Below, piece by piece: positions 11,836-64,000 of a stretch of DNA of 64,000 bases. The DNA is from Planctomycetota bacterium. GTDB taxonomy: Bacteria; Planctomycetota; UBA8108; SXIK01. Position numbers and translations under genes: made by a program. The notes beneath the pieces are model-generated. The model was given only the letters and a program-made list of their open reading frames with translations, searched no databases and was not told the origin of the DNA. How positions within the stretch are numbered: the stretch's first letter is position 1; each line of letters opens with the position of its first letter. The stretch spans positions 5,856,001 through 5,920,000 of the forward strand of contig CBDCXR010000004.1 of assembly GCA_965223845.1 (NCBI GenBank), written 5' to 3'.

Positions 11836-12385
11836 GACCGCTCCTTTCACTCCATCCGCCTTGAAGAAGAGATTGCCGTAGCTTCTGCGCGGCGTAACGA
11901 CAGCGCGAGACGACGGTCGACTCGGGCACGTCGAGAAACGCCGCGACCTCGGCGTAGGTCATGCCCACGAGCTCGCGGAGAACGATCGCCTCGCGCTGCG
12001 CGTCGGGAAGCTCGTGGAGTGCCCGGCTCAGCTCGTCCGCATCGAGTGCGCAGCTCGGCTCGGCGCTCGCCGATCGGCGAAAGAGAGGGTCTTCACCGAG
12101 GAGCGTGATCGCGCTGGCGCGTCGTCGTTCGCGGCGCTGGTGGTCTCGCGCGGCGTTGCGAGCGATCGTGAGAAGGTAGGGTTTCATGTTCGGCTTAAGT
12201 TGGATCCGCTTCACACTCCGTACGATCGCCACGAACGTTTCTTGCAGCAGCTCTTCGGCCGTCTCGCGCCGTCCGACGAGGGCGACGAGATAGACATAGA
12301 GCTCCCGCCGGTAGCGGTCGTAAAACTCGGCGAACGCGCGCTCGGAGCCGCGGGCGTAGGCCTCGAGAAGATCTCGGTCCGTCAT
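11825..12385 (-). CDS. ECF RNA polymerase sigma-70 factor
   Basis: TDRDLLEAYARGSERAFAEFYDRY, AEELLQETF, YLLTIARNAARD, LHELPDAQREAIVL...TYAEVA..LDVPESTVVSR. Confidence 0.92.
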   Translation of the reverse strand: MTDRDLLEAYARGSERAFAEFYDRYRRELYVYLVALVGRRETAEELLQETFVAIVRSVKRIQLKPNMKPYLLTIARNAARDHQRRERRRASAITLLGEDPLFRRSASAEPSCALDADELSRALHELPDAQREAIVLRELVGMTYAEVAAFLDVPESTVVSRCRYAAQKLRQSLLQGGWSERSGHDA

Positions 12386-12518
12386 AGGTTGAGTCGACTC
12401 GGAGGAAATCCCTTTGGGATCCAACTGGATAAACGCTCCGGGGACGCGGATTCTTTCAACCGATCTGGAAAAAATGAGCTCGAACCCACTCGAAGTGTAC
12501 GGCCCTTAGGAGTTTCCC

Positions 12519-48702: not shown

Positions 48703-51700
48703 ATGTTGCCGTCCATTTCGCGGAGTCGCCGCTCCGCGCTGCTCGGGGCACTGTGGTGTGGTGTGTTTTCCATCGTCGCGTCGACAGGTGTCCATGCGGA
48801 CATTCTGATTAGTGAGATCCACTACGCGCCCGTGGATGCGAGCGGAGTGCCGCAGCCGAATCTCGAGTTCGTCGAGGTGTTCAACGACGGCCCGGAAGTC
48901 TACGACCTCACCGGCTATCAGTTCGTCGACGGCTTCTCGTTCGAGTTCACCGAGCGGACGTTCATCCCGGGACGCGGCTACATCGTTATCTGTCGAGACG
49001 AGGATGCGCTGCGCGATGCGTACGGCATCACGAACACCGTGGGCAACTTCGACGGCATTCTCGACAACTCCGGCGAACGTCTCAGTCTCGCTAATCCGCA
49101 GGGCGCGATCGTGAGCAGTGTCTCCTACAACGACCGCGGAAAGTGGCCGGCGGCGGCAAAGGGCACGGGGCATTCACTCGCTCTCTTCGACGGCTACACG
49201 GATCCGGGTGAACCGGAGAACTGGCGCGCGAGCACTCAGTTCGGCGGGACGCCCGGCCGGATCAACTTCGCGACGGACGTCACTTTCGAAGATCGAACTT
49301 TGATCGAGCCCGGCGAAGAGTGGCGCTATCGAAAAGGGACGTCGGCGCCGCCGGCGAGCTGGGCTTCGCGCACCTTCGACGATGGCTCGTGGTCGCGGGG
49401 CGAGACCGGAATCGGCTACGGCGACGGCGACGACGCGACGGTTCTCGACGACATGGAGGACAACTATTTGACCGTGTTCTGCCGGAAGTCGTTTGCGCTT
49501 TCGGCGGATGACATCGAGGCGATCGACGACCTCGTCCTTCGTGTCGTCGTCGACGATGGCATCTACGTTTATCTAAACGGAGCCTCTGCCGGCTCGTCGA
49601 ACGGCACGGGTCGCGGTCACGATGACAACGCCGGGAGTGCGGGTGAGCCGGAAACGGTGGAGTTCGACCTCACCGGGCTCAAGGACGAGCTCGTCGTCGG
49701 GACGAACGTCGTCGCCGCGTCCGTTCACAACGCGAACCTCGGGAGCTCCGACCTTTCGTTCATTCCATCGCTTCTCAGCCGACGGCGCATCGAGCCCGAA
49801 GAGACCGCGACCGTCCCGGTCATCATCAACGAGGGGCTCCTTCGATCGGCCGAGCGCTTCGTCGAGCTTCACAACACGAGCGGCGGGACCATCGATCTCG
49901 CCGGGTACTTCCTCACCGACGATTTTGCCGACCTCGAGCGCTACTCCCTGCCGGCCGGGACGACGATCGGTCCGCGCGGCTTTCTTCAGCTCACCGAGGC
50001 CGAGACGGGCCTCGACTTCAGTGTCGATCCCGGTCTCAAGGACCGCGTCTCGATCGCGCTTACGAATCCGAACGGGACGCGTGTCGTCGACGCGTACATA
50101 TTCGAGCCGAAGGTGGACGGGAAGAGCGAAGCGCGCGTTCCCGACGGAATCGGCGACTTCGAGCCGGCAGCGGTCCCGACGCCGGGGGCGGCGAACGAGG
50201 TCGATGTGATCTCGAGCGTCGTTTTCAACGAGATCATGTATCACACGATTTCGGACGACGTCCGCGGCGAGTACATCGAGTTCTTCAATCGCGGGGACGT
50301 CGACGTCGACCTCGGCGGCTGGCGTGTCGTCGGCGTCGACTACGAGTTTCCTCCCGGAACCGTGATCCCGGCGGGAGACTACCGTGTCATCGCCCACAGC
50401 CCGTCGCGCATTCGACAGGTTTACGATCTCGACGAAACCGTCGTGCTCGAGCCCGCGTGGGGAGGACGACTCCGAGACAGCGGCGAGCGAATCGATCTCG
50501 TCGATCTCAACGGGAACACGGCCGATTCGGTTCGTTTCTACGACGGCGGAGAGTGGCCCGTCTGGACCGACGGCCTCGGCTCCTCGCTCGAGCTCATCGA
50601 TCCGTTCGCCGACAACGAGAACCCGCTCGCCTGGGACGCCAGCGACGATTCCGCCAAGGCTCGCGCGACGACGATTCAGTACGGAGGCGTACCGTTCGGC
50701 GGGCGCGAGTCGGACTTCGGAGTCTTTCTCGCGGAGGAGGGCATCGCGATCATCGACGACGTTTCGCTCCAGCGAAGCGGCAGCAACACGAATCTCATTC
50801 GCAATCCAAGCTTTGACTCGAGCACGACCTCGTGGCGCATCGAAGGAACGCACAGCCGCTCGGGCCGAACGAGTGACGACGAGGAGACTCTGCGCGGAGG
50901 CGGCTCACTCAAGCTGATCTGCTGGGGCGGAGGAGGCGACTACAAGGTCAATCGCGTCGAGCAGAACACGTCGACCCAGACGTCCGGCAGCTACTCGGTC
51001 AGCTTCGAGGCGCGGTGGGTCGTCGGTAGTCCGCGCATCATCACGATCGGGGACTACAGCACGGGCCAGCCGTCGAATCCGGGTCTCGCCGGCTCGAATC
51101 GCCTGACCGTTCCGTCGCAGCTCGGCACGCCGGGCGCGGTGAACAGCGTGACGCTGCGGCAGATCGATCGCGCGGGCTCGTCGAACATCGGGCCGACGTT
51201 CGGGGACGCGCATCACTCGCCGGGAGTTCCGTCCTCGGGCGCGGCGGTGACGGTTTCGGCGCGCGTGAGGGATCCCGACGGCGTCGTCAGCGTGAGCGCT
51301 TACTACCGCGCCGAGAGTCCGAATGGATCCTTCACCGAAGTGAGGCTCAGCCACGAGGGCGGCGGGCTCTACCGCGGCACGATTCCCGGGATGAGCCAGG
51401 GAACGAAAGTTCTCTTTTATTTCGAGGCAGTCGACACTCGGGGCGGCCTCTCGCGCTTCCCACGCGACATCGCGCGATCGACGCATCCGCCGATCGTCGA
51501 TCCCGACAGCCCGAGTCGGAACGATCTCCGTTACCTTCTCTATCGTCACGATCGAGCGAGCGTTTCGACCTCGCGCCATGCGCTTCGATTCATCCTCAAC
51601 GAAGCGAGTGAGAGCGAGCTCGGATCGCGCCGCGTACTTTCCAATCAAATGCTCGATGGGACGCTCGTCTTCGGCGACGACGATATCTACTACAACGCGA

Positions 51701-53550
51701 AGATCCGTTTTGCGGGGAGCCCATGGCTCCGTCCGGGCGGCGGATTCGACAAGAGCTACGCGCTCCGGTTCCCGAAGGACAATCCGCTCCACGGCCGGCA
51801 CCGCGCCATCAATCTCGACGAGCACGGCTCGAACGCACGCGAGCGCATCAGCCACTATCTTCTCCGTCACAGCGCGGGCAAGTTCACGAAGCTTCCCTAT
51901 TGGGACTTTCACGCCCTCTCGAGCTTCGAGCTGAACGACGTCCACTCCGACACGAAGGAAATCCTCGCCAAGCCGAACAGTCAGTATCTCAACTTCTGGT
52001 TTCCGGACGACGATGTCTCGCCCTTCTACGAGATGGACGACCGGTTCCAGTTCGACGACAGCGGCAATCGTCAGGGAAACGCCGAGGCGCACGTTCTCTA
52101 TCCGCCCTACGGATCGAGTAGCGGTGGCGACAACAAGGAAAACTATCGCTGGTACTTCGTCCCGCGGGGAAACACGAAGTCCTACGACGAGTTCGGCCCG
52201 CTCATCGCGCTCGCGCAGTTCATGGACGACCGCCGCACTCCGAACGCGACTTTCGACGCCGCCGTGTTCGATCTCATCGACGTCGAAGAACTTCTCCGCG
52301 TCTTTGCGATCGAGCTCAACATCGACGATTGGGATACCTGGAGCGGGCGCCGCGGAAAGAACGGCTACCTCCATCAGTCGAGCTCGGATGGCCTGTGGCG
52401 AAAGATCCCCTGGGATCTCGAGCTCACGTACGGCGACGTCAACGCGACGAGCCTGCCGTCGTCGCCGACGAGTACGTACCGCAATCATTTCCGGGAGATC
52501 GAGCGCTTCATCAATCGACCGGCGATCAAGCGAAGGTACTACGGAATTCTCGCCGAGCAGGTGGATACCTCGAACGGCTTCTTTCACTCGCGGTACCTCG
52601 GCCCCTACATGCAGCGCCTCCAGGCCGACAGCGTCTCGAGCACGGGAATTGGGACGAGCGGCGGGTTCATCGATCAACGCGCCACCCGAATCCGCGGCTG
52701 GATCCGAACGGTCTCCTCCGCGTCGGTCGACTTCGAGATCACGACGAACGACGGGAACGACTTCGTCTCCGAGAACGATACCGTGCGCTTCTCAGGCACC
52801 GCGCCGGTCGAAGTCGCTCACCTCGTCGTTCACCGAAACGGCGATCCGATCGACGTCCAAACGGTGTTCGCCTCGATGACTCGCTGGCAGACCGGGAACA
52901 TGGAACTCGGCGGTGACGTCAACGAGTTCGAGATCCTCGGATTCAACTCGCAAGGGGAGTTTTTCGATAGCGCGACGATCCGAGTCACGGCGCCGTTTTC
53001 CTTCGAGAAACCGGAGATCATTTCGGTGACGCCCGAAAGGGTCGTCGTCGGCGGGACGATCGAAATCCGTGGCACGAACTTTCACCCAGGTCTCGAAGTC
53101 CGGTTCAATGGGTTCATAGTCGCCGAGAACGTCGAGTTCGACCCCGACGTTGATCCGTCCGTCGTTCGCGTTGTCCTCCCCGAGGCGGGACTCACGGCCG
53201 GCGTCGCGACGGTCGCGGTGAAGAACATCGACGGGAAGGAGACGGATCACGTCGTGATCCAGATCATCGAGGATCTCGGAGAGATCGTGTTCATCCGAGG
53301 AGACGCGAACCTCGACGGTGGCGCGAACGTGAGCGATGCCCTCGCCGTGCTCAATCACCTCTTCTCGGATGGATTCGAGCCCGGCTGCCTCGATGCCGCC
53401 GACGTCAACGACTCGGGCGTTGTCGATATCAGCGATCCAGTGAACCTGCTCAATTTCCTCTTCGGCGACGAGGCTCCCCCGCTTCCGCCCTATCCGGACC
53501 CGGGGACGGACCCGACGCCCGACGAAACGTCGTGTCTCGAGGGGCTCTGA
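48703..53550 (+). CDS. Secreted lamin-tail-domain / CotH-kinase-like protein with IPT/TIG and dockerin-like domains
   Basis: LTD starts ILISEIHY, VIINEG, VVFNEIMY; CotH-like KIRFAGSPW, DDWDTW..RGKNGYLH..WRKIPWDLELTY; PEIISVTP TIG; FIRGDANLDGGANVSD...DAADVNDSGVVDISD. Confidence 0.87.
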   Translation: MLPSISRSRRSALLGALWCGVFSIVASTGVHADILISEIHYAPVDASGVPQPNLEFVEVFNDGPEVYDLTGYQFVDGFSFEFTERTFIPGRGYIVICRDEDALRDAYGITNTVGNFDGILDNSGERLSLANPQGAIVSSVSYNDRGKWPAAAKGTGHSLALFDGYTDPGEPENWRASTQFGGTPGRINFATDVTFEDRTLIEPGEEWRYRKGTSAPPASWASRTFDDGSWSRGETGIGYGDGDDATVLDDMEDNYLTVFCRKSFALSADDIEAIDDLVLRVVVDDGIYVYLNGASAGSSNGTGRGHDDNAGSAGEPETVEFDLTGLKDELVVGTNVVAASVHNANLGSSDLSFIPSLLSRRRIEPEETATVPVIINEGLLRSAERFVELHNTSGGTIDLAGYFLTDDFADLERYSLPAGTTIGPRGFLQLTEAETGLDFSVDPGLKDRVSIALTNPNGTRVVDAYIFEPKVDGKSEARVPDGIGDFEPAAVPTPGAANEVDVISSVVFNEIMYHTISDDVRGEYIEFFNRGDVDVDLGGWRVVGVDYEFPPGTVIPAGDYRVIAHSPSRIRQVYDLDETVVLEPAWGGRLRDSGERIDLVDLNGNTADSVRFYDGGEWPVWTDGLGSSLELIDPFADNENPLAWDASDDSAKARATTIQYGGVPFGGRESDFGVFLAEEGIAIIDDVSLQRSGSNTNLIRNPSFDSSTTSWRIEGTHSRSGRTSDDEETLRGGGSLKLICWGGGGDYKVNRVEQNTSTQTSGSYSVSFEARWVVGSPRIITIGDYSTGQPSNPGLAGSNRLTVPSQLGTPGAVNSVTLRQIDRAGSSNIGPTFGDAHHSPGVPSSGAAVTVSARVRDPDGVVSVSAYYRAESPNGSFTEVRLSHEGGGLYRGTIPGMSQGTKVLFYFEAVDTRGGLSRFPRDIARSTHPPIVDPDSPSRNDLRYLLYRHDRASVSTSRHALRFILNEASESELGSRRVLSNQMLDGTLVFGDDDIYYNAKIRFAGSPWLRPGGGFDKSYALRFPKDNPLHGRHRAINLDEHGSNARERISHYLLRHSAGKFTKLPYWDFHALSSFELNDVHSDTKEILAKPNSQYLNFWFPDDDVSPFYEMDDRFQFDDSGNRQGNAEAHVLYPPYGSSSGGDNKENYRWYFVPRGNTKSYDEFGPLIALAQFMDDRRTPNATFDAAVFDLIDVEELLRVFAIELNIDDWDTWSGRRGKNGYLHQSSSDGLWRKIPWDLELTYGDVNATSLPSSPTSTYRNHFREIERFINRPAIKRRYYGILAEQVDTSNGFFHSRYLGPYMQRLQADSVSSTGIGTSGGFIDQRATRIRGWIRTVSSASVDFEITTNDGNDFVSENDTVRFSGTAPVEVAHLVVHRNGDPIDVQTVFASMTRWQTGNMELGGDVNEFEILGFNSQGEFFDSATIRVTAPFSFEKPEIISVTPERVVVGGTIEIRGTNFHPGLEVRFNGFIVAENVEFDPDVDPSVVRVVLPEAGLTAGVATVAVKNIDGKETDHVVIQIIEDLGEIVFIRGDANLDGGANVSDALAVLNHLFSDGFEPGCLDAADVNDSGVVDISDPVNLLNFLFGDEAPPLPPYPDPGTDPTPDETSCLEGL

Positions 53551-53579
53551 GCGCCGCACGAATCGGGAGAACGGAGAGC

Positions 53580-55136
53580 GTGAACGCGTCACAAATCGCG
53601 TCGAGGTCGAGGAGATCTCGGGGAAGGCCGCTTCTCTTGTTCGCGATCGTCGCATTCGGTGCGCGCGACGGGCGAACGGAAGACGGGAAGCTCTGGATCG
53701 AGGCCCAGGACGCGGGCGGCGCTGTCGTCCCCTGCCGCGTCCATCTCTCCGGCGCAGACGGAAAGCCGATTCGAGCACCGGGATCGCCGTTTTTCCGCGA
53801 TCATTTCACGGCTCCGGGCGGCGTCGAGCTGACGCTTCCGGTCGGGAAGTATCGCTACGAGATCGAGCGCGGTCCGGAGTTCGAACGCGCGGCGGGTACC
53901 GTCCTCGTATCGAGTCGCCCTGCGAAGATCGTCGCCAGCATCGGTCGAATCTCCAATCTTCGCGCCGACGGCTGGTACTCCGGCGACCTTCACATCCACC
54001 GTCCTCCCGGCGACATCGAGACTCTCGCGAGAGCGGAGGACCTCGATGTCGCCCCGGTGATCACGTGGTGGAATAACCGGAACCTGTGGAGCGGACGAGC
54101 GCCGCCGAGGCGTGTTCTTCGCCGCTTCGACGGTTCGCGCTACGCGCACGTGATGGCCGGCGAAGACGAGAGGGAAGGCGGCGCACTTCTCTATTTCGGG
54201 CTCGAGAAGCCGATCGAGATCACTGGCGCTTCGCGCGAGCACCCCTCTCCCCTCGACTTCGTCGCCGCTGCGCGCGCCGCCAACTCAAAGGTCTGGATCG
54301 ACATCGAGAAGCCGTTTTGGTGGGACGTTCCGGTGTGGCTCGCGCTCGGCGACGTGCACTCGATCGGAATCGCGAACAATCACATGTGCCGCTCGACCGT
54401 GCTGGGGAACGAGGCTTGGGGGCGCCCGCGCGACACCGAACGCCTCCCCGCGCCGCACGGAAACGGCTACTGGACGCAGGAGATCTACTACCACGCGCTC
54501 AACGCTGGACTGCGAGTTCCTCCGTCGGCAGGAAGCGCGTCGGGCGTTCTTCCGAATCCGGTCGGTTACAACCGCGTCTACGTGCACGTCCCGGGCGAGT
54601 TCACCTACGAGAAGTGGTGGGAGGGCCTCCGCGCGGGACGCTCCTTCGTGACGAACGGTCCGCTCTTGCAGGTGAAGGCTTCGGGAGATCGCCCCGGCGC
54701 GTCGTTTCGGGGTCCAGAGGGTCACCGCTTCGAGATCCCGCTCGAGATCGAAGTGGTTTCAAACGATGCCCTCGATCGAATAGAGCTCGTTCAAAATGGC
54801 GAAATCGCCGTGTCGCTGCCGGCCGGCGGCGCTCGTCGACACCAAGCGCGGGCGACCGTCTTGTTCACGGCGAGCGGCTGGTTTCTCGTCCGAGTCTTCG
54901 CAAGGAACGAGCGCACGTTTCGTTTCGCGTCGACCGCACCGTACTTTGTCGAGATCGGCGCGAACGCGCGCCCCGTGCGAAAACCTTCCACGGAGTTCTT
55001 TCTTCGGTGGGCGCGCGAACGCGCGGATCGAGTTCGAAAGAACCTCGCCGGCGAGCCGAAGAAGCTCGCCGACGTGATCGCGTACCACGAGCGTGCGATC
55101 CGGTTCTGGGAGGAGAAGGTGAGCGAGGCCGATTGA
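53580..55136 (+). CDS. CehA/McbA-like PHP-family metallohydrolase
   Basis: Likely GTG start at 53580 after GGAGAG; VPCRVHL, IERGPEF, GWYSGDLHIH, YYHALNAGLRVPPSAGS, VGYNRVYV, LRAGRSFVTNGP. Confidence 0.8.
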   Translation: MNASQIASRSRRSRGRPLLLFAIVAFGARDGRTEDGKLWIEAQDAGGAVVPCRVHLSGADGKPIRAPGSPFFRDHFTAPGGVELTLPVGKYRYEIERGPEFERAAGTVLVSSRPAKIVASIGRISNLRADGWYSGDLHIHRPPGDIETLARAEDLDVAPVITWWNNRNLWSGRAPPRRVLRRFDGSRYAHVMAGEDEREGGALLYFGLEKPIEITGASREHPSPLDFVAAARAANSKVWIDIEKPFWWDVPVWLALGDVHSIGIANNHMCRSTVLGNEAWGRPRDTERLPAPHGNGYWTQEIYYHALNAGLRVPPSAGSASGVLPNPVGYNRVYVHVPGEFTYEKWWEGLRAGRSFVTNGPLLQVKASGDRPGASFRGPEGHRFEIPLEIEVVSNDALDRIELVQNGEIAVSLPAGGARRHQARATVLFTASGWFLVRVFARNERTFRFASTAPYFVEIGANARPVRKPSTEFFLRWARERADRVRKNLAGEPKKLADVIAYHERAIRFWEEKVSEAD

Positions 55137-55542
55137 GCCAAGAGTCGCGCCTTCGAATCCGCCTCGCTTCGAGTGGAACGATCCCGTCGATACTCATCTC
55201 TCGTGCTCTTCGCGACGTGGTCATGTAGGGCGAAGCTACGCCCCCGCACCGCGGTGAAGCGCCGAAGAGCCAAGGCAGTTTCGGTCGACGAGATTCGGCC
55301 CGGTTTGGCGCGTCGCGTGCGCCGCCGTCGCAACCATCGCTGCGCCAAGCCTTTAAACACAATAGTCGGTACGATTAAATCAAGTCGAAGGGGTCTGTTT
55401 AGAGCAACTTGAACTGCGTCGCGTCATACGAGTATCGCGAAATAGTTCGCATGCGGAAGCTGTTCTCTCATTAATTCGGAGAGAGAGCGCAGTAGATCGC
55501 GATTGACATCTGCGGCCTCCCGGACACGATGCAGGAGCTTGC

Positions 55543-57168
55543 TTGGTGTGGGGCTCCGAAGTGGAAAATCGACACGTAGCGTGGGAAGCGTTCGAGTCCG
55601 CCGAGACGGTGCTCAGTCGGAATCCTTCCGTCCGTGCATCGGAACTCGGGTTCAAGGTCTCGGATGGCGAGTTGTTGCCTCAGCTGGCGATTCGCGTATA
55701 CGTAGACGCCAAGCTGCCCGCCGCCGCGGTCCCTAGAGACTGCCTCATTCCTCCCGTGATCGCTGGACTGCCGACGGATGTGCTCGCCGTCCGTGACGAA
55801 GCGTTCCTCGGACACGACATGGTCGGCGGTGATCAGCTCACGCGAGTCGTGTGGAACGAGTCCGGAACCGGTTCCGGAACACTTGGCTACATGGCTACGC
55901 GTCAGACCGACAGCGCGACGGTGATGCTCTGCAACGAGCACGTATTCCGGAGCGACCTCGGCGAGGGTGAGCGGCGTGAGATCTATCAGCCGGACATTTC
56001 TCGCTGTCTCGGGAGCACCTGTAACAAGGTGGGGTACGTCGCGGACGGTTTCATCGGCGACGTCACCTGGGCGAGTAGCGGCACTCCTTCCCCGCATTTC
56101 GTCGACTGCGCGATCGGTGAAGTCGTCGACGCGAGCTCCAAGCGCGGAGTGAAGGATCTCCCTGCGATTACCGGCGATCAAGATATCTCCACGACACCGG
56201 TCGGTCCCGGCGAGGCTCCACTCCCGGTAAAGAAAATCGGTGCGACGACGGGGCGCACGGAAGGTGTCGTGGTGAGCGTCAACAGTACCGGGCATCAGAA
56301 GGTGGGCCCGATCGAGATTCTCAACCAACCGCGCACCATTCTGATTCGCACGACGAACGGCCCGTTTTTCGAGGAGACGTTTACCGTTCCCGCCGGCGAG
56401 GTGAGCTCCATCAAAGACGCGTTCAACGCGCTTGGAGGTCCCGGCACCGTCTCCGACGCCGGAACCAATCAACTGCGCTTTCGCGTTCCGACGTTTTCTC
56501 GAGGCGGAGATTCGGGATCGGCCATCGTAAGCGCGAGCGGAGGGATCGTCGGCTTGCTATACGCGAGCGCGATCTTCTCGTTTCCCGCCATCGAGGGAAC
56601 AGAGACGGTTCGGAAGACGATCCCCGTCGGCGAGTCGCGGGCGTGCCACATCGGGCCGGTGATGAACCGGATGGGAGTCCGGATCGATCCGTCCACCTCG
56701 CCTAGCGCCGGTCCGGACGTATTCGTGCCCGGTGTCGCGATCGCTGCCAGCAAGCCGGATCCATCGCTTCGAGAACGCATCGACGCGCTGGAGATTCAGT
56801 TGCGTTCCAGCCCAACCGGACGAAGGTTCTTCGAGCTCATTCGGAAGCACGGACGCGAAGTGGTCCAGCTTGTTCACCATCATCGAGCCGTGAAGGTCGC
56901 GTGGCACCGGCACCACGGGCCGGCCTTTGCCGCGCTCGTCGTCGACCACTTGCGCGATTCCGCCCGGTTCGTCCCCCGCGCGCATCAGGGAAAGACGTTC
57001 TCTTCGCTCTTGTCCGCCATGGCCGACGTCTTCGTTCGTCACGGCAGTCCGGCGCTCGGCGCCGCGATTGAAGCCCATCGCTGCCGGTTTCTCGATTGCA
57101 TCGCCCGCAGTCGCAGTGTGGACGAGTTCATGGTTGCCCTGGCAAGCGAACCGAGCGCTGTCGAATGA
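55543..57168 (+). CDS. Trypsin-like (S1, Nal1-type) serine protease 1: prodomain + protease + C-terminal helical domain
   Basis: AGGAG RBS; prodomain LGFK...IRVYVDAK...IPPVIAGLPTDV; GTLG, NEHV (His), VDCAI (Asp), GGDSGS (Ser); no signal peptide. Confidence 0.85.
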   Translation: MVWGSEVENRHVAWEAFESAETVLSRNPSVRASELGFKVSDGELLPQLAIRVYVDAKLPAAAVPRDCLIPPVIAGLPTDVLAVRDEAFLGHDMVGGDQLTRVVWNESGTGSGTLGYMATRQTDSATVMLCNEHVFRSDLGEGERREIYQPDISRCLGSTCNKVGYVADGFIGDVTWASSGTPSPHFVDCAIGEVVDASSKRGVKDLPAITGDQDISTTPVGPGEAPLPVKKIGATTGRTEGVVVSVNSTGHQKVGPIEILNQPRTILIRTTNGPFFEETFTVPAGEVSSIKDAFNALGGPGTVSDAGTNQLRFRVPTFSRGGDSGSAIVSASGGIVGLLYASAIFSFPAIEGTETVRKTIPVGESRACHIGPVMNRMGVRIDPSTSPSAGPDVFVPGVAIAASKPDPSLRERIDALEIQLRSSPTGRRFFELIRKHGREVVQLVHHHRAVKVAWHRHHGPAFAALVVDHLRDSARFVPRAHQGKTFSSLLSAMADVFVRHGSPALGAAIEAHRCRFLDCIARSRSVDEFMVALASEPSAVE

Positions 57169-58757
57169 GCGATTCGAAAAACGACTGGTGGCGGGCTCAC
57201 GCGGAGGCGACGGAAACGATCGCCAATCTCCCCGGCGTGAGAGGCATCGGGCTCGGGATCAAGGAGACGGCGCGCGAATTGACGGGTGAGGTCGCGGTCA
57301 TCGTTTACGTAGATGTCAAGCGGCCGAGCGAGGGACTCGACCCGGCGGAGCGAATTCCTCCAGCGGTCGCCGGCGTGAAGACTGATGTTCAGCGCGCGCT
57401 CAAGATCGCGACGTTTGGGGGTACGACGATCGAAGGCGGCATACAGATTCGCGCGACGCCCGACGATCGCGATCGACCGAAGCCCGGCACACTCGGTTAC
57501 ATCGCTACGCGAGAGTCAGACAGTGCGAATGTGATGCTGAGCTGCCAACACGTCATGCGTTCTCGAGGGGGCGACAATCGGATCTTCCATCCGGACGTCT
57601 CCCGCTGCTGCGGGAAGTTGAAGAATCGGGTGGGTGAAGTCGGCGAAGGGACGATCGGTCACGTGTCGTTCACCAATTCGGTCGATACGTCCATGTATTT
57701 TGTGGACGCCGCGATCGCCTCGATCGATGCGGGCATCAACGCGCGGAAGTTCATCTCGGGTGTCGGAGCGATCAGCGGTTCGGGTGATCTCACCGCGACG
57801 CCAATTGGCGGTGGCAGCTCGACGATCAGCGTCAAGAAGCGTGGCGCCAAAACCGAGCTGACCGGAGGAACGGTGGACGACGTCGCCTATCCGTTCGTGC
57901 AGGTTCCCGGCGCACCGACCGCTCAGCGCGTGATCCGGATTCGACCGGCATCCGGAAACACGTTCCCGTTCAGCATCACTTGGCAGGTTCCGCCGGGTGA
58001 CGTCGCGGGACACGTCGCAAACTTCCCGACGGAATCGCTGGGCGGAACCGCGACGCAAGTCGACTCCGATCGGATTCGATTTGACGTGCCGGTTTTCGCG
58101 GTACCCGGTGATTCGGGTTCGGCGGTGGTAGACACCTCGAGCGGTCGCATCGTCGGACTGGTGTTCAGCGGCAGTGTCTACGTACTGCCGGCGTTTCAGG
58201 ACGGACGCTTGGGAACAGGAATTGTCCCGACGGGGTTCGCCGTCGCCTGCCACATCCCGCCCGTTCTGGCGGAGTTGGGAATCAGGATCGACGCATCGAC
58301 AACGCCGAGCGCCGGCCGACGACGGCTTTTACCCGGAACCGAAATCTCGGCGGACCCGCCGGATCGGCTCGAGCTGATCAACGCCCGCCTCGGTGCCCTC
58401 GAGTCGTCTCTCGATGCCATTCCCGCCGGGCGACGACTGACGAATCTTCTGCGCGAGCACGTCGAGGAGCTCGTCGATCTGGTCCACCACCGCCGGCGCG
58501 TGCTGGTGGAGTGGCATCGCACCCGCGGACCTGCGTTTTCGGCGCTCACGTTGGAAGCGATCGCCGACGGAAGACGCGAGATGCCCGAGGTCGTCAGCGG
58601 CGTCTCGCGCGACGAGATGCTACGGCGCATGCGCGATGTGCTCGCCGTCGAAGGCAGCGCGGCGCTGAAGGAAGCACTGGCGGAAAACGAATCGTTCCTC
58701 CTCGGGTTGTTGGCTGCGAGCCGAACCGTGGACGACTTGGTGGCGAATCTAAAATGA
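57165..58757 (+). CDS. Trypsin-like serine protease 2: prodomain + protease + C-terminal helical domain
   Basis: ATGA overlap; GIGLGIKE...IVYVDVK...IPPAVAGVKTDV; PGTLG, CQHV, VDAAI, PGDSGS. Confidence 0.87.
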   Translation: MSDSKNDWWRAHAEATETIANLPGVRGIGLGIKETARELTGEVAVIVYVDVKRPSEGLDPAERIPPAVAGVKTDVQRALKIATFGGTTIEGGIQIRATPDDRDRPKPGTLGYIATRESDSANVMLSCQHVMRSRGGDNRIFHPDVSRCCGKLKNRVGEVGEGTIGHVSFTNSVDTSMYFVDAAIASIDAGINARKFISGVGAISGSGDLTATPIGGGSSTISVKKRGAKTELTGGTVDDVAYPFVQVPGAPTAQRVIRIRPASGNTFPFSITWQVPPGDVAGHVANFPTESLGGTATQVDSDRIRFDVPVFAVPGDSGSAVVDTSSGRIVGLVFSGSVYVLPAFQDGRLGTGIVPTGFAVACHIPPVLAELGIRIDASTTPSAGRRRLLPGTEISADPPDRLELINARLGALESSLDAIPAGRRLTNLLREHVEELVDLVHHRRRVLVEWHRTRGPAFSALTLEAIADGRREMPEVVSGVSRDEMLRRMRDVLAVEGSAALKEALAENESFLLGLLAASRTVDDLVANLK

Positions 58758-59713
58758 CCCGATTTCCGGCCGAGCAAGATTACGAATCCGCGCTGGTCGT
58801 TGCGAGACGAGCCGCTGGCTTTCGCGGATTGGGGTTCGGCGTGAAGGAAATCGCGGGAAAGGTCACGGGGGAACCAGCCTGGCGAGTCTACGTCGCTCGC
58901 AAGGACGGACTGCGCGCGCTCGCGCCGAGTGAGCGAGTGCCCGCACGTATTCTGGATCTGCCGACCGACGTGATCGAGTACGCAGGGGTGACTCCCTCTG
59001 CGGCGCGTCCATCCGCGGGCGCGGACAGACGTCACTCGTTGTCGGACGGCTCCGCGATCGCGAACCACAAGGGCGTCCCCGGAACCCTGGGCTGTCTCGC
59101 TCGGCTGCGATCTTCGCAGGAGCCGGTTCTGCTCTCCAACTATCACATCCTCTTCGCGAGGAATTCGCAGCGCGGCGATCCGGTCTGGCACGTGCCCGCG
59201 GAAGGGAGCGGCGAGCCTTATCCGATCGGTCGAGTCTTGGGCGGAAAGGTCGGGCGGGTCTCCGATCGAGGCGAGGAAGTTTTCGTCGATGCCGCCTTGG
59301 GGACGATCGACGACGCGCTACAGGACGAATGGATGGAGTCGAACGAAACGCCTGCGATCGAGCCGGACACTGGACTCGCGTCCGCCGTCGCGGGATCGCG
59401 CGTGCGTAAGGTCGGCGCCGCGACAGGGCGGACTTGCGGGCTCGTCGTCGACGTCCGGTACCCGGATCGCTGGTACTGGCAGTATCGATCGGAGAGTGCG
59501 CCGCGGCAGATCCTCGTTCAGTCGGGCGAGCCGGACGGGGGTGTGTTCTCGCGCTCCGGCGATTCCGGCGCGGTCGTTCGCGACGAGTGCGGCGCGGCGG
59601 TGGGGCTGCTCTGGGGAAGCAATGCGCGCGGAGAAGGGGTCGCCTGTCCGATGGGCGCGGTGACGAGAGCCTTGGGAATCTATTTCGACGTCGCGAACGG
59701 GGAAGTGTCTTGA
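58754..59713 (+). CDS. Trypsin-like serine protease 3: prodomain + protease, no C-terminal domain
   Basis: ATGA overlap; GLGFGVKE...RVYVARK...LPTDV; PGTLGC, SNYHI, VDAAL, KVGAATGRTCG, SGDSGA. Confidence 0.87.
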   Translation: MTRFPAEQDYESALVVARRAAGFRGLGFGVKEIAGKVTGEPAWRVYVARKDGLRALAPSERVPARILDLPTDVIEYAGVTPSAARPSAGADRRHSLSDGSAIANHKGVPGTLGCLARLRSSQEPVLLSNYHILFARNSQRGDPVWHVPAEGSGEPYPIGRVLGGKVGRVSDRGEEVFVDAALGTIDDALQDEWMESNETPAIEPDTGLASAVAGSRVRKVGAATGRTCGLVVDVRYPDRWYWQYRSESAPRQILVQSGEPDGGVFSRSGDSGAVVRDECGAAVGLLWGSNARGEGVACPMGAVTRALGIYFDVANGEVS

Positions 59714-61113
59714 GCTACGGTAACGAGTATCAAGAAACGCTGCGTCCCGGGATCCTGATCACGAGCAAGGTCAGTCCACCGGGCGGGACGCTGGGATGTT
59801 TCGCTCGGTTGACTAGCGACCCATCAAAGATCGTGCTCCTCAGCAACAGTCACGTCCTTTACGGCGACGTCCAGTCGCTCGGAGGGGCCGGCGCCGGCGA
59901 CGGAGCAGACGTGGGACAGCCGAGCGTGTCGTGCTGTTGGTGCTGCGCTTGTCGCGTGATCGCCGCGAATCGAACGAACGCCTTCACTCGTGTCACGGTG
60001 AATGTGACCAGCCCGGAAGCGAGCACGGAAACCGGGAGCGAGATCGACTGCGCGATCGCGATTCTCAACGACGATCGTCCGTACACGAACGAAGCGCTCT
60101 ACGGAATGATCACGGGGACGCCGAACTCGGGGTTCGGCGTGTCGGGCGGCGACGCGGTGGAGATGGTCGGTTCGACGTCCGGCCGGTCCTCAGGGACGGT
60201 GCTTTCGTTCACGACGACGGCGACGCTCCAAAACGGTACGCCCGTACCGCCGATTCTCTTTCCTTACACCGTGTCGGGCTCGGAGATCGACGACAACTTC
60301 GCGGGAGTGCCGTCGGGGGTCAACCAGCTGCTGATCGCTCCGGACCCGAACCCTCAGAATTCCAGCCAGAAGACTCATTTCTGCGGCCCGGGTGACTCTG
60401 GTTCCGTGATCGTCAACTCGGCTAAGCAGGTCGTCGGCCTACTCAGTCGTGCTTGGCAGCCGAGCGAATCCAGTCGCGCTTTCCTCAACGCGCGGATGAG
60501 CTCCCCGCTCCCCGACCACGTCGGAACCTTGGGCCTTGCGGCGCCCATCGGAGCCGTCCTCAGCGCGCTCCAAATCCAGATCGATGGCAACATGTCGGGC
60601 ACCGCACCATCTGCGGGGGCATCGCTCGTGGATCTCAAGCGAGGCGAGAGAAGGCGAGCGCTCCAACTGACGCTGCGCGATCTGGAGCGGGAGATCCGCA
60701 CCAAGGCGCTCGGACGGACTGTGATGGACGCGATCGCGCGGCATCGCGGGGAAGTTCTGAGTCTCGTGAACAACGAGCGTCGAGTAGCGGTGGCCTGGCG
60801 TCGTAGTGAAGGCCCCGCGTTCGCCGCGCACTGCCTGCGTAGCCTCGAGGATCACGAATACGTCATTCCTTCGGACGTCCACGGCGTCACTCCTCGGAGG
60901 CTCATCGAGAAGATGGCCGCGGTTCTCAAGCGCTACGGATCCGACGCCTTGCGTCGGGACATCGAAGCCTACGAACGAATCGCGTTCGACTGGATCGTGG
61001 ACACCACGAGCGTTTGGCCGCTGGTGGAGCGCATGAAACGTCTTGAACCCCTCGATCGCGACGACGAGCGCGCGACCGAGGTGGGATCGACCGAATACCT
61101 AAGCTGGGGTTAG
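59710..61113 (+). CDS. Trypsin-like serine protease 4: protease + C-terminal helical domain, no prodomain
   Basis: TTG start overlapping the previous TGA (TTGA); GGTLGC, SNSHV, IDCAI, VGSTSG, PGDSGS; Cys cluster SCCWCCAC. Confidence 0.82.
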   Translation: MSYGNEYQETLRPGILITSKVSPPGGTLGCFARLTSDPSKIVLLSNSHVLYGDVQSLGGAGAGDGADVGQPSVSCCWCCACRVIAANRTNAFTRVTVNVTSPEASTETGSEIDCAIAILNDDRPYTNEALYGMITGTPNSGFGVSGGDAVEMVGSTSGRSSGTVLSFTTTATLQNGTPVPPILFPYTVSGSEIDDNFAGVPSGVNQLLIAPDPNPQNSSQKTHFCGPGDSGSVIVNSAKQVVGLLSRAWQPSESSRAFLNARMSSPLPDHVGTLGLAAPIGAVLSALQIQIDGNMSGTAPSAGASLVDLKRGERRRALQLTLRDLEREIRTKALGRTVMDAIARHRGEVLSLVNNERRVAVAWRRSEGPAFAAHCLRSLEDHEYVIPSDVHGVTPRRLIEKMAAVLKRYGSDALRRDIEAYERIAFDWIVDTTSVWPLVERMKRLEPLDRDDERATEVGSTEYLSWG

Positions 61114-61116
61114 AGC

Positions 61117-64000
61117 ATGGCGGACGAACGCGGCACCTTGGAAGTTCTGGCCACCGGCTTGGGGCGTCTGCTCGAGCCGCTCGCCGTCGGACTCCAGCCC
61201 GAAAAGATCCAGGGATTCTTCGGCCAGCTCGGGTATCCGCTGACGGAAGCTCAGGCGAGCACGTTGAGCACGGCGGCGGGCGGGACTTCGGCGACGCTGA
61301 CGGAGCTGTTCTCCCTCGTTCGCGAGCTCGTCGCGGCAGCGGAGGCTGAAGATACGGATCTCATCCTCGAGAAGGGCGTCCAGACCGCCGTCCGCGTGAC
61401 TCAGGCCATCGTGGGGTTCGCCGACTTGCGGGACGCTGTCAACGGGCTCGGTCTCGCGAGCGCGACACCCGCCGAAATCGCGGAGATTCCCGAGCGGCTG
61501 CTCTCGTATCTCCTCGTCGAGAACCTCGAAGCCCTCCGACCAACCAACGAGATCCTCGAGCTGCTCGGCGTGCTGGAGCGAGTCGAGCACAACGTCGACT
61601 CGGTCGATCCAGACGCGCCCGAGTACACGGTGTCGAGCTTTCATTTCGATCGCTTGTTCGCGTGGCTCGGCGATCCCGGAGGACAACTGAAGTCGCTCTA
61701 CGGTTGGGGCGACTCGAGCTTCGACGGCTCGCTCCTGCTTCCGAAACTGGAACGACTGATCGCCACCACCGGGATGCCAGTGGTCTACCACGAGGCGGAG
61801 AGGCGCCTCGACCTCGTGCTTCTCGAGATCACAGCTCCGTCCACTCTGAATCCGCGCGGATTGCAAATCGCACTCAACACGCAGTTCGACACCGGCGAGC
61901 TCGAGCTTCCGAACGGCGATTTCACGGTCACGTTTCAGCTCGCGGTCAACGGTCCTCCCGGGCTCGCCGTCACCATTCAACCGAACGGCAACGTCGAGTT
62001 GGTGCCTCCGGACACGAGCGCGGAGATCAGCGGTGAAGTGCGCCTGGGATTCATCACCACAGGAGGTCCGTACATCCTCCTCGGCGAAGCCGGCGGCAGT
62101 CGACTGGAGATCGGAGGAATCGGGGCGGAGGCTGGTACGCGCCTCAGCTGGGTGCCCGCCGAGGGTAAGGCGACGGGTGCTTTCGATCTTCTCGGCCGAC
62201 TCGAAGAAGGAAAGGTGGTGATCGATGCCTCGGGGGGCGACGGATTCCTGAACGAGATCATCCCCGGGGCGAAGATCGACGGCGAGTTCGACCTCGCCCT
62301 GGGCTACGACTCCGAGACGGGTTTCTTCATCCAGGGCAGCAGCGCGATCGAGATTCGTCTCCCCCTCCATCTCGACCTCGGCCCGATCGGGTTCGACGCG
62401 CTGACCATCGCGGTTGGTCTCAACTCGGACGACATCGCGGTCCAACTGGGCGCGGACATCAGCGCGAATCTCGGGCCGCTCCAGGCGGTCGTCGAGAACA
62501 TGGGCGTGGAGGCAGCGTTTTCCTTCCCGCCGGGCGGCGGCAACCTCGGTCCGCTCGACCTCGACATCGGCTTCAAACCTCCCAACGGCGTCGGTCTCTC
62601 GCTCGATGTCGGCATCGTCAAGGGCGGCGGCTACCTCTACTTCAACTTCGACAAGGAGGAATATGCGGGTGCGCTCGAGCTCGTCTTCAGCGGCTTTCTC
62701 ACCGTAAAGGCGATCGGACTCGTCACGACTCGCATGCCGGACGGGTCCGATGGTTTCTCGCTGCTGATCATCGTCAGCGTCGAGTTCGGCACACCGTTTC
62801 AGCTGGGATTCGGCTTCACGCTCAACGCGGTCGGCGGCCTGCTGGGGCTCCACCGGACGATGGAGCTCGAGCGATTGGCGGAGGGAGTCCGAACGGGCGC
62901 GATCGAGAGCGTCATGTTCCCGGACGACATCATCGCGAATGCGCCGCGCATCATCAGCGATCTTCGCGAGTTCTTTCCTCCGCAAGCCGACACGTTCCTC
63001 ATCGGGCCGATGGCCAAGCTCGGTTGGGGCACACCGAGTCTCGTGACGGCATCGCTCGGTGTCATCGTCGAGATCCCGCCCGGGAACATTGCGATTCTCG
63101 GTGTCTTGAAGGTTGCGCTTCCCCACGAGGACGCGGCTCTCATCCTCATTCAGGTCAACTTCATCGGCGCCCTCGAAGTCGACAAGAAACGACTGTGGTT
63201 CTTCGCCGGACTGTTTGAGTCGCGGGTGCTTTTCATCACGCTCGAAGGCGAGATGGGGCTGTTGATCGCGTGGGGTGATGACGCGAACTTCGTCCTGAGT
63301 GTAGGTGGGTTCCACCCGAGGTTCAGTCCCCCGCCGCTCCCCTTTCCGAATCCCATCCGGATCGCGATCAATATCCTCAACACGTCGTTCGCCAGAGTTC
63401 GCGTGACCGGCTACTTCGCAGTCACGTCCAACACGGCGCAGTTCGGCGCGCGGGTCGAAGTCTATTTCGGTTTGAGCGCGTTCAACATCGACGGCCACCT
63501 CGGGTTCGAAGCGCTCTTTCAGTTTTCGCCCTTTTATTTCATCGTGAGCCTGTCGGCTTCGCTGAGCGTCAAGGTCTTCGGGATCGGCCTGTTCAGCGTC
63601 CACATGCGAGGCGAGCTCGAAGGCACGTCCCCCTGGCACATCGAAGGGGAGGGTTCGATATCGCTGCTGTTCTGGGACATCAGCGTTCCGTTCAGCCACA
63701 CATGGGGCGAGGACGAGAACACGACTCTGCCGCCGATCGAAGTCATGCCGATTTTGGTCGACGAACTGAGCAAGCTGGACAACTGGACGGCTGAGCTCCC
63801 AGCGGCGAGCTCGCTGCTCGTCTCGCTGCGTGAGGTGACGACCGATAGCGATTTGATCATGCATCCGGTCGGTGTCCTCAAGGTCAGCCAGCGCGCCGTC
63901 CCTCTCGACCTCGATCTCGACACCGTCGGCAATCAGAAGCCGAGCGACGCCCGCCGGCTCACGATCGAAGTGATCGACGCCGACCTGGACAAGGTCGGCG
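61117..64000 (+). CDS. Large beta-rich DUF6603-like protein, truncated at the window end (>960 aa)
   Basis: Not in the ORF track (no stop). ATG at 61117: MADERGTLEVLATGLGRLLEPL...LYGWG...GFKPPNGVGLSLDVGIVKGGGYL...YAGALEL...AIGLVTTRMPDG..GFSLLII...QLGFGFTLNAVGGLLGLHR...GWGTP...SVGGFHPRF...GYFAVTSNTAQFGA...HPVGVLKVSQRAVPL. Confidence 0.82.
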   Translation, partial: MADERGTLEVLATGLGRLLEPLAVGLQPEKIQGFFGQLGYPLTEAQASTLSTAAGGTSATLTELFSLVRELVAAAEAEDTDLILEKGVQTAVRVTQAIVGFADLRDAVNGLGLASATPAEIAEIPERLLSYLLVENLEALRPTNEILELLGVLERVEHNVDSVDPDAPEYTVSSFHFDRLFAWLGDPGGQLKSLYGWGDSSFDGSLLLPKLERLIATTGMPVVYHEAERRLDLVLLEITAPSTLNPRGLQIALNTQFDTGELELPNGDFTVTFQLAVNGPPGLAVTIQPNGNVELVPPDTSAEISGEVRLGFITTGGPYILLGEAGGSRLEIGGIGAEAGTRLSWVPAEGKATGAFDLLGRLEEGKVVIDASGGDGFLNEIIPGAKIDGEFDLALGYDSETGFFIQGSSAIEIRLPLHLDLGPIGFDALTIAVGLNSDDIAVQLGADISANLGPLQAVVENMGVEAAFSFPPGGGNLGPLDLDIGFKPPNGVGLSLDVGIVKGGGYLYFNFDKEEYAGALELVFSGFLTVKAIGLVTTRMPDGSDGFSLLIIVSVEFGTPFQLGFGFTLNAVGGLLGLHRTMELERLAEGVRTGAIESVMFPDDIIANAPRIISDLREFFPPQADTFLIGPMAKLGWGTPSLVTASLGVIVEIPPGNIAILGVLKVALPHEDAALILIQVNFIGALEVDKKRLWFFAGLFESRVLFITLEGEMGLLIAWGDDANFVLSVGGFHPRFSPPPLPFPNPIRIAINILNTSFARVRVTGYFAVTSNTAQFGARVEVYFGLSAFNIDGHLGFEALFQFSPFYFIVSLSASLSVKVFGIGLFSVHMRGELEGTSPWHIEGEGSISLLFWDISVPFSHTWGEDENTTLPPIEVMPILVDELSKLDNWTAELPAASSLLVSLREVTTDSDLIMHPVGVLKVSQRAVPLDLDLDTVGNQKPSDARRLTIEVIDADLDKVG

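Follow-up and report, generated by a model that had tools for sequence, protein, structure and literature searches.

Four NAL1-like serine protease paralogues share a bacterial operon with a conserved four-gene cassette for large proteins

We analyzed a window of 64,000 nucleotides (nt), the whole stretch G000:C4:5856001–5920000 of genome G000 (7.9 Mb, 4 contigs, approximately 65% G+C), at the end of which an operon of 4 protease genes (P1 to P4) runs into a gene for a large protein of the DUF6603 family (A). The original prediction, made from the letters of the window, had described 4 paralogous proteases joined by ATGA, ATGA, and TTGA overlaps and separated from the DUF6603 gene by a 3-nt gap, and both the coordinates and the junctions proved correct: the overlaps read ...cgaATGA (P1/P2), ...aaaATGA (P2/P3), and ...gtcTTGA (P3/P4), and the TAG stop codon of P4 is followed by AGC and then by the ATG of A. 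Extension of the contig to the right, which the same prediction had proposed, completed gene A, which runs 500 nt past the window end, and revealed B, C, and D. Because these 3 further genes are coupled to A, we count the operon as 8 genes, P1-P2-P3-P4-A-B-C-D (Table 1). The A/B and C/D junctions are GTGA overlaps, B and C are separated by 1 nt, and no small immunity-like gene lies between the coupled genes. In the leader, GGAG stands 6–9 nt ahead of a TTG/GTG start, and a scan of positions 55137–55542 for the sigma-70 consensus returned 0 sites. Terminator-like hairpins and a convergent gene lie 3' of D.

Table 1. Features of the operon. Plain positions are those of the window; positions with the prefix L004 lie on contig sequence read past its end. 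aa, amino acids; CTD, C-terminal domain; ORF, open reading frame.
Feature	Length	Position	Strand	Basis or remark
Leader, intergenic, presumed promoter region	about 400 nt before the operon	55137..55542	+	no operon ORF inside
P1, NAL1-like serine protease: N-domain, protease domain, CTD	541 aa	55543..57168	+	ORF list, family profile
CTD of P1, helical, residues 409–541	about 125 aa	56767..57165	+	alignment A4
P2, NAL1-like serine protease: N-domain, protease domain, CTD	530 aa	57165..58757	+	ORF list; ATGA overlap with P1
CTD of P2		58377..58754	+	alignment A4
P3, NAL1-like serine protease: N-domain, protease domain, no CTD	319 aa	58754..59713	+	ATGA overlap with P2
P4, NAL1-like serine protease: protease domain, CTD, no N-domain	467 aa	59710..61113	+	TTGA overlap with P3
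CTD of P4		60661..61065	+	alignment A4
A, DUF6603 protein	1127 aa	61117..64000 in the window, to 64500 in full	+	Pfam DUF6603
B	1105 aa	L004:497–3814, beyond the window		one candidate transmembrane hairpin
C	1887 aa	L004:3816–9479, beyond the window
D	642 aa	L004:9476–11404, beyond the window

The proteases P2–P4 share 31–39% identity with P1 in the alignment, P2 being 39% identical to it. All the catalytic motifs quoted in the original prediction are present (NEHV/VDCAI/GDSGS in P1, CQHV/VDAAI/GDSGS in P2, NYHI/VDAAL/GDSGA in P3, and NSHV/IDCAI/GDSGS in P4). The triad H133, D188, and S324 (P1 numbering; codons at 55939–55941, 56104–56106, and 56512–56514) is invariant across the 4 paralogues and throughout the 22 sequences of the alignment behind profile A2, which combines the 4 paralogues with 18 database relatives. 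The GDSG motif lies at residue 315 in P2, residue 269 in P3 (as GDSGA), and residue 228 in P4, with the serine codons at 58113–58115, 59564–59566, and 60397–60399, respectively. Also as predicted, a simple hydropathy scan found no hydrophobic signal-like segment at the N-terminus of any of P1–P4. The N-domain of P1, P2, and P3 comprises about 90 residues and corresponds to alignment columns 10–100, which are missing from P4; the CTD of P1, P2, and P4 is helical.

The proteases had been described as trypsin-like enzymes of the S1 family with a hint at a Nal1 type, and of these assignments the hint stood and the S1 label fell. The Pfam family Trypsin_2 (PF13365) reached P2 only, scoring 19.7 bits where 27.6 are required, with no match for P1 and P4, and Trypsin (PF00089) matched none of the 4 proteins. 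By contrast, a search of the PDB with profile A2 returned 9 distinct chains of rice NARROW LEAF 1 (NAL1) with E-values from 1.5e-20 to 2.4e-18; the next family, the staphylococcal Spl proteases, followed at 6.2e-5. The match covers NAL1 residues 84–416 with the HV, D.A, and GDSGS motifs in register, and the alignment runs from NAL1 residue 84 or 114 to near residue 456 of 582. None of P1–P4 matched Pfam Nal1_C or NAL1_N at E≤0.01. Relatives of P1–P4 bear both domains, and 2 of these relatives (P0019 and P0026) reach Nal1_C with 35.7 and 34.3 bits (cut-off 26.1). Since P1–P4 themselves stay below the Pfam thresholds, we regard them as distant NAL1 relatives and not as formal members of these Pfam families. 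Judged by their sequences, P1–P4 are relatives of NAL1 with the PA-clan fold and a His-Asp-Ser triad, and they fall outside the classical S1 family.

Excerpts of the NAL1 structural study (PMC12012508) divide NAL1 into an N-terminal domain, an ATP-binding domain (residues 89–172) through which the trimer contact is formed, and a protease domain (residues 184–458), and they state that activity requires a hexameric cage of 2 trimers (a trimer of dimers). In the profile alignment, the N-domain of P1–P3 corresponds to the ATP-binding domain as delimited in these excerpts, and the His, Asp, and GDSG serine of P1–P4 would be the equivalents of the catalytic H234, D291, and S385 (numbering as excerpted from PMC12012508). 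Comparison with rice NAL1 (PDB 7y77, 8has, 8pml, and 8pme; Pfam NAL1_N PF25608 and Nal1_C PF25819), with which the proteases share an alignment over the ATP-binding and protease domains (E 1.5e-20), revealed that (i) P1, P2, and P4 have an additional helical CTD, which did not align to NAL1; (ii) 4 distinct paralogues stand in a fixed order here, in contrast to a single gene there; and (iii) P1–P4 are bacterial proteins coupled to a cassette of giant proteins.

NAL1-like proteases are not confined to this operon. A NAL1-like protease domain occurs in 28 of the 301 genomes of the phylum of the window, and the other NAL1-like proteases of that phylum match the protease part of the profile only. 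P1 also matches the PHROG family phrog_20754, annotated as protease (E 6.2e-20), so NAL1-like proteases also occur in some phage genomes. Genome G000 itself encodes a fifth NAL1-like protease about 256 kb past the window (C4:6176143–6177012, minus strand), which covers profile positions 14–366, stands alone, and has no CTD. Our literature search on bacterial NAL1 homologues, which included cyanobacterial and trypsin-like proteins, found no paper.

The arrangement of the 4 proteases is conserved across phyla. We surveyed arrays by a pattern scan with one genome per species and the protease as sole anchor, which yielded 8 loci. Five of these (L005–L009) are close to the operon and come from metagenome-assembled genomes labelled Planctomycetaceae, Gammaproteobacteria, Chloroflexota, Thiodiazotropha, and Lysobacterales. 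The order P1-P2-P3-P4-A-B is kept in all 5 (in 4 of 4 when L007, from an unpublished genome, is excluded), and D is present in 4 of the 5 genomes; in the fifth the contig ends early. P1 orthologues (43–57% identity) occupy the first place of the array and P2 orthologues (53–62% identity) the second in each of L005–L009, and in the close loci the orthologues are 41–63% identical, compared with 25–40% between paralogues. The array of L006 has 5 genes, with 2 tandem copies of the P4 type (L006:5447–8217) that are 58% and 56% identical to P4. The remaining loci, L010–L012, are distant single proteases with neither A nor B in the surrounding 10 kb; the lone protease of L010 is flanked by an M23 peptidase with polyglycine-hydrolase-like repeats and by a pectate-lyase-like protein (L010:6704–9820 and 11467–13524).

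A protease tree (FastTree, with Shimodaira–Hasegawa-like supports) resolved 3 groups, each of which spans several clades of the cassette. The P1/P2-type group consists of members that come first in their arrays, and P2, second in its own array, groups with first-in-array members from elsewhere. The P3-type group comprises 9 members without a CTD, placed in mid-array in most arrays that have one (support 99). The P4-type group comprises 8 last-in-array members (support 97), in which P4 stands with L083, L084, L085, L099, and L142. A second protease lineage (L103, L108, and L112) repeats the layout of full, CTD-less, and full proteases. In addition, 2 protease domains are fused in a single frame in L085, L099, L142, and the database proteins P0033 and P0111, and L106 resembles a fusion of 3 domains, with a frame irregularity. 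These sequence relationships point to P1–P4 as ancient, non-redundant paralogues of a bacterial NAL1-type branch. The multi-protease complex put forward in the original prediction is thus plausible in view of the NAL1 cage (as excerpted from PMC12012508), the conserved paralogue order, and the fusions. From the trimer-based cage, the 3 conserved paralogue types, and the fusions, we infer that the P1/P2, P3, and P4 types would join into one hetero-oligomeric ring or cage of the NAL1 kind.

The original prediction had paired the proteases with one large protein, and in this respect it must be revised, as the locus joins them to a fixed cassette of 4 proteins. A metagenome scan with the alignment of A gave 420 relatives, and the analysis went on with the 80 best. 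Among these, B follows A directly in 67 of 68 loci with room for it; the count for C is 46 of 47, and that for D is 37 of 37; L158 is the sole locus without B directly after A, with about 2.5 kb between them (L158:10779–13249). The position before A was then tabulated in the 60 loci whose sequence reaches 1500 nt or more ahead of A, with Pfam run on 10 representatives and cluster membership assigned by BLAST. NAL1-like proteases lie directly before A in 30 of these 60 loci (one protease in 8, two in 13, three in 8, and four in 1), which makes their arrays the commonest occupant of this slot in the A subfamily of the metagenome sample. The other 30 loci have one large gene in the slot: a subtilase of family S8 (7 loci), an M64 peptidase (4), an M14 carboxypeptidase (4), a galactose/glyoxal-oxidase-like protein (2), a PLD-like protein (1), a PhoD-like protein (1), members of 3 unassigned clusters (3, 3, and 2 loci), or unscanned singletons (3). 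Peptidases of 4 unrelated classes thereby fill 45 of the 60 slots. In the phylum of the window, the gene before A is PLD-like in G032, a subtilase in G215 (contig C113), and an FG-GAP gene in G122.

The protease module is therefore exchangeable: the slot before A holds either 1–4 NAL1-like proteases or one unrelated enzyme, and the interspersed slot types (payloads) on a FastTree of A imply repeated swaps. Compared with other A-B-C-D cassettes of DUF6603 (PF20248), the operon shares the fixed gene order and differs in having 4 proteases in the slot in place of one enzyme. Non-proteases (PLD-like, PhoD-like, and oxidase) occupy the same slot, so a dedicated zymogen cascade that processes the DUF6603 protein, as originally suggested, fits the data poorly, given another gene in 30 of 60 slots. 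Seven further DUF6603 genes, from a sample of the phylum of G304, encode longer proteins of 1565–3518 aa (5 of them longer than 3200 aa) and have different partners. Among the slot proteins are 3 of about 630–670 aa whose representative has no Pfam family (L143:2777–4795, L144:5052–6959, and L146:140–2020). The N-termini of those from L144 and L146 are lipoprotein-like, with a hydrophobic stretch followed by Cys, and are the only clear signal-like ones among the 30 non-NAL1 slot genes; the L143 protein has a hydrophobic stretch further in from the N-terminus.

Protein A had been seen in the window as an ORF of more than 960 aa with a beta-rich, DUF6603-like character. The family is confirmed, the beta-rich core is likewise predicted by the model below, and only the length changes, to 1127 aa. 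A matches Pfam DUF6603 with 451.3 bits (cut-off 27) over residues 417–978 and profile positions 1–501 of 502; the E-value is 5.1e-135 at full length and 1.8e-132 when only the in-window portion is searched. In the AlphaFold2 (AF2) model (predicted local distance difference test score, pLDDT, 77.4; predicted template modelling score, pTM, 0.46), N-terminal helices (residues 7–150) precede approximately 30 long beta-strands (residues 220–870), and low-confidence linkers lie at residues 900–909 and 1002–1053, the latter ahead of a small C-terminal domain. Foldseek related the model only to giant membrane barrels (SlpA, LptD, MtrB, and ushers; E 1e-5 to 1e-3, template modelling score, TM, ≤0.15), and VIA aligned 250–370 residues to porin-type barrels (Z 11–13.3) with a root-mean-square deviation (rmsd) of about 10–14 Å. 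A is thus predicted to be a long antiparallel, amphipathic, porin-like beta-meander that only loosely resembles porin-type barrels; with an rmsd near 11 Å and TM ≤0.15, a closed barrel is not established. Unlike the outer-membrane barrels (LptD, ushers, SlpA, MtrB, and porins), A has no Sec-type signal stretch in the hydropathy scan: its N-terminus (MADERGTLEVLATGLGRLLEPLAVGLQ...) is predicted to be helical and shows no hydrophobic signal-like stretch. A profile search of the PDB with A returned designed coiled coils only (E≥0.058).

These features of A allow for a protease-gated pore, in which the slot enzyme would cleave A or another cassette protein and thereby free the amphipathic sheet of A for membrane insertion. 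Bacterial gasdermin operons contain one or more adjacent proteases, which activate the gasdermin by such a cleavage, and they resemble the present operon in placing a signal-less beta-rich protein beside one or several proteases of varying class. The predominance of peptidases of 4 unrelated classes in the slot, the protease gene abutting A, the roughly 30 long amphipathic strands predicted in the model with their local similarity to porins, LptD, and ushers, and the 2 low-confidence linkers are all in line with a pore of this kind. On the other hand, PLD-like, PhoD-like, oxidase-like, and FG-GAP genes occupy the same slot, the fixed partners B, C, and D are left without a role, and the structural matches are too loose to define a barrel. 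In a column-wise comparison of A between 24 CTD-linked and 28 other cassettes, residues 1–460 were more variable overall, and the comparison singled out no region of A that covaried with the payload type. A is also about 4 times larger than a gasdermin, no gasdermin family appeared among its Pfam matches even at E≤10, and, unlike gasdermin operons, this operon has 3 more giant obligatory partners and a slot that non-protease enzymes can occupy. The fold comparisons list porin-type barrels and not gasdermins, a result too loose to weigh on either side. We consider a protease-gated pore unlikely, though still a serious rival of the reading favored below.

None of the other cassette proteins, B, C, and D, matched Pfam even at E≤10. 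B gave one row at E 1 against PDB sequences and C gave 0 matches; against the ESM Atlas, C matched only unnamed clusters of like size, and D gave no usable match. PHROGs returned nothing for A, C, and D and a single row at 0.046 for B. D has more than 3231 relatives, of which the top 120 are all 55–73% identical to it and carry neither a Pfam domain nor an informative name. The model of D (pLDDT 75.5) gave nothing at E≤1e-3 in a Foldseek search of the PDB, and its best hit in the wide VIA comparison (Z 6.1) was a SAM-like helical piece covering residues 117–232 only. A search of viral contigs with D found one 4-kb contig matching residues 2–67 only; in that collection the cassette is thus nearly absent from viral sequences and no trait of phages. 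B contains a strongly hydrophobic stretch (residues 606–649) long enough for a hairpin; the hydropathy scan found no other clear membrane segment and no signal peptide in the 8 operon proteins. The Cys counts of A, B, C, and D are 0, 3, 6, and 1, within the lowest 2–9% of a rough collection of long G000 ORFs, and the 4 proteins are acidic; the Cys content of P1–P4 is ordinary or high.

The statement that no named system has this architecture stands for the resources searched: PADLOC-DB v2.0.0 (the 2023 library) matched 0 of the 8 operon proteins at E≤0.01, NCBIfam gave nothing meaningful for them, with ThcB4 as the sole defence-related row (15.4 bits against a cut-off of 220), and we found no paper on DUF6603 or PF20248. 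The same searches bear on an intracellular anti-phage or abortive-infection system, in which infection, sensed by A–D, would turn on the protease cage or a different effector that degrades host or phage proteins in the cytoplasm. The distribution is patchy, with DUF6603 in 4 of the 301 genomes of the phylum of the window and in 8 of the 401 genomes from the phylum to which G304 belongs; the genes have evidently moved between phyla, the effector gene can be swapped, and all 8 proteins are without a signal peptide, as might be expected of such a system. The PADLOC result speaks against it, as does the lack of an NTPase motif (no Walker A motif was found in the 8 proteins) and of any domain related to nucleic acids. 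In our judgement, PhoD-like, galactose/glyoxal-oxidase-like, and M14 payloads would be unusual effectors, and D, 55–73% identical across phyla, seems too conserved for a defence gene; the flanking genes are of the lamin-tail, CotH, and dockerin types and not defence genes. A defence role appears quite improbable to us.

The slot enzymes suggest a further alternative, an export or display platform by which the cassette would carry folded, signal-less hydrolases out to the surface of the cell or into the medium for nutrient scavenging. The families S8, M64, M14, PhoD, PLD, and galactose/glyoxal oxidase are known chiefly for secreted enzymes. Their representatives in the slot have no obvious signal peptides, as is true of the slot genes other than NAL1-like ones apart from L144 and L146. 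The Cys-poor and acidic composition of A–D fits such a platform, and so do the hosts, which are bacteria of soil, sediment, and water as judged by record labels. Against such a platform, the operon has no protein that would couple energy, A has no known targeting to the outer membrane, and the occurrence would be very sparse for a nutritional trait; moreover, the excerpts of PMC12012508 present NAL1-type proteases solely as intracellular. We give this alternative a slim chance.

The CTD provides a second link between the proteases and the cassette. Its profile matched 1328 cluster representatives at E≤1e-3, of which 1026 at E≤1e-10, and its best match in the PDB had an E-value of 0.042. In the phylum of the window, the CTD occurs in 1 of 301 genomes, G000 itself, and there at P1, P2, and P4 only. 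At least one CTD-bearing protease is present in all 30 protease-bearing cassettes, and in 29 of the 30 the gene adjoining A has the CTD. Over the whole cassette sample, 51 of 62 protease ORFs have the CTD and 61 of 62 keep the GDSG motif. The CTD thus marks cassette-linked proteases. It also forms the C-terminus of the subtilases adjoining A in L118, L135, and L145 (E 1e-16 to 1e-19), which have no NAL1 domain; the cassette of L118 sits within a protease-linked clade of the A tree. A complex prediction of the P1 CTD (alignment A4) with A residues 1–420 (A7), run without controls, gave a score of 0.00 against a mark of 0.32, an outcome that counts neither for nor against binding.

The M14 payloads (L114, L119, L131, and L158) and the oxidase-like payloads (L115 and L124) share a different C-terminal module within their last 150 residues. 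It carries the motif C(I/L)(V/I)ATAAYGS...P.V.FLR.LRD, which is followed by a hydrophobic tail in 5 of the 6 proteins, and by sequence it looks like a tail anchor. The sharing of C-terminal modules by unrelated enzymes of one slot suggests that these modules are targeting or anchoring tags. We rejected the CTD as a tag of all payloads, as it is confined to the NAL1-like proteases and 3 of the 7 subtilases, and no C-terminal module was found in the M64, PLD, and PhoD payloads.

Taken together, the reading that we favor, though tentatively, is that P1–P4 are the enzyme payload of an A–D complex and form a hetero-oligomeric cage of the NAL1 type, which the complex holds or delivers. The cage would be the catalytic effector or cargo, and it would be held, released, or delivered across a membrane by a membrane-anchored A–D complex in which B supplies the single hairpin; the proteases would not be a dedicated maturation cascade for A. 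The link to a membrane is argued from the hairpin-length stretch of B (residues 606–649) and from the hydrophobic tail of the M14 and oxidase payloads. The least certain step is the direction of action, that is to say, whether the enzymes would act outside the producer or on a different cell, or within the producer itself. A more specific form of this reading, which we regard as possible but doubtful, makes A-B-C-D a new membrane-associated machine that moves a folded cytoplasmic enzyme assembly through or into a membrane by way of the beta-sheet of A, with the C-terminal modules of the payloads as loading tags. The assembly moved by this operon would then be the hetero-oligomeric cage of the 3 paralogue types, and the tags would be the CTD on proteases and subtilases and the tail-anchor-like module on the M14 and oxidase enzymes.

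Several observations weigh against the payload reading. The link between P1–P4 and A–D is drawn from gene arrangement, and no column block of A was seen to separate the 24 CTD-linked cassettes from the 28 others. The skew towards peptidases (45 of 60 slots) also fits proteolysis needed by the cassette itself. A–D match no secretion, toxin, or defence family and have neither a signal peptide nor a Walker A motif, so that delivery is proposed by analogy. The contrast in Cys content between the proteases (normal to high) and A–D (poor) does not suggest a shared compartment. Furthermore, the CTD may merely be a family domain of the NAL1-like proteases: it is fused to a NAL1-like domain in 106 of 106 of the best full-length (at least 300 aa) database matches, and the distant, cassette-free proteases of L010 and L011 have a marginal CTD-like match (E of about 1e-3).

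The analogy invoked for delivery is with Tc/ABC toxins and effectors of the type VI secretion system (T6SS), which are modular delivery complexes with exchangeable enzymatic payloads. Like these, the operon combines fixed large structural proteins with a variable hydrolytic enzyme and has a patchy, horizontally transferred distribution. It differs from them in that (i) no Rhs/YD, TcA, VgrG, sheath, or tube domain was found in the 8 proteins with Pfam and NCBIfam; (ii) its coupled genes are not interrupted by any small immunity-like gene; and (iii) the single Tc row in the Foldseek search of A (6suf_F; probability 0.15, TM 0.06) is not meaningful.

Upstream of the operon, a gene on the plus strand (48703–53550) encodes a protein of 1615 aa with 3 lamin-tail domains, a CotH kinase-like domain, and a weak dockerin match, which is probably unrelated to the operon. 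Between it and the leader lies an ORF of 534 aa (53532–55136, plus strand) with no Pfam match. Several other proteins of the window end in C-terminal GD(A/P)N.DG dockerin-like repeats.

What is new here is the identity of the proteases, their dominance of the slot before A, the conserved paralogue types with their fusions, and the pattern of the CTD. NAL1, a yield gene of rice, turns out to have a large bacterial sister family, which in its CTD-bearing form alone comprises 1026 clusters at E≤1e-10. The set of 3 paralogue types predicts a hetero-oligomeric cage, and we found no such description for bacterial NAL1 homologues. The 4 large proteins of the cassette, which together comprise approximately 4,760 residues and match no described system, occur as A-B-C-D in about 1–2% of the genomes sampled in 2 phyla and are found alongside an exchangeable enzyme in hundreds of bacteria from the environment. 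The operon is a favorable entry point to them, as its payload has in NAL1 a relative of solved structure and understood mechanism, and clear catalytic serines that can be mutated. The function of A–D, once known, would add a new bacterial machine, whether it serves export, the delivery of toxins, or defence, or acts as a gated pore.

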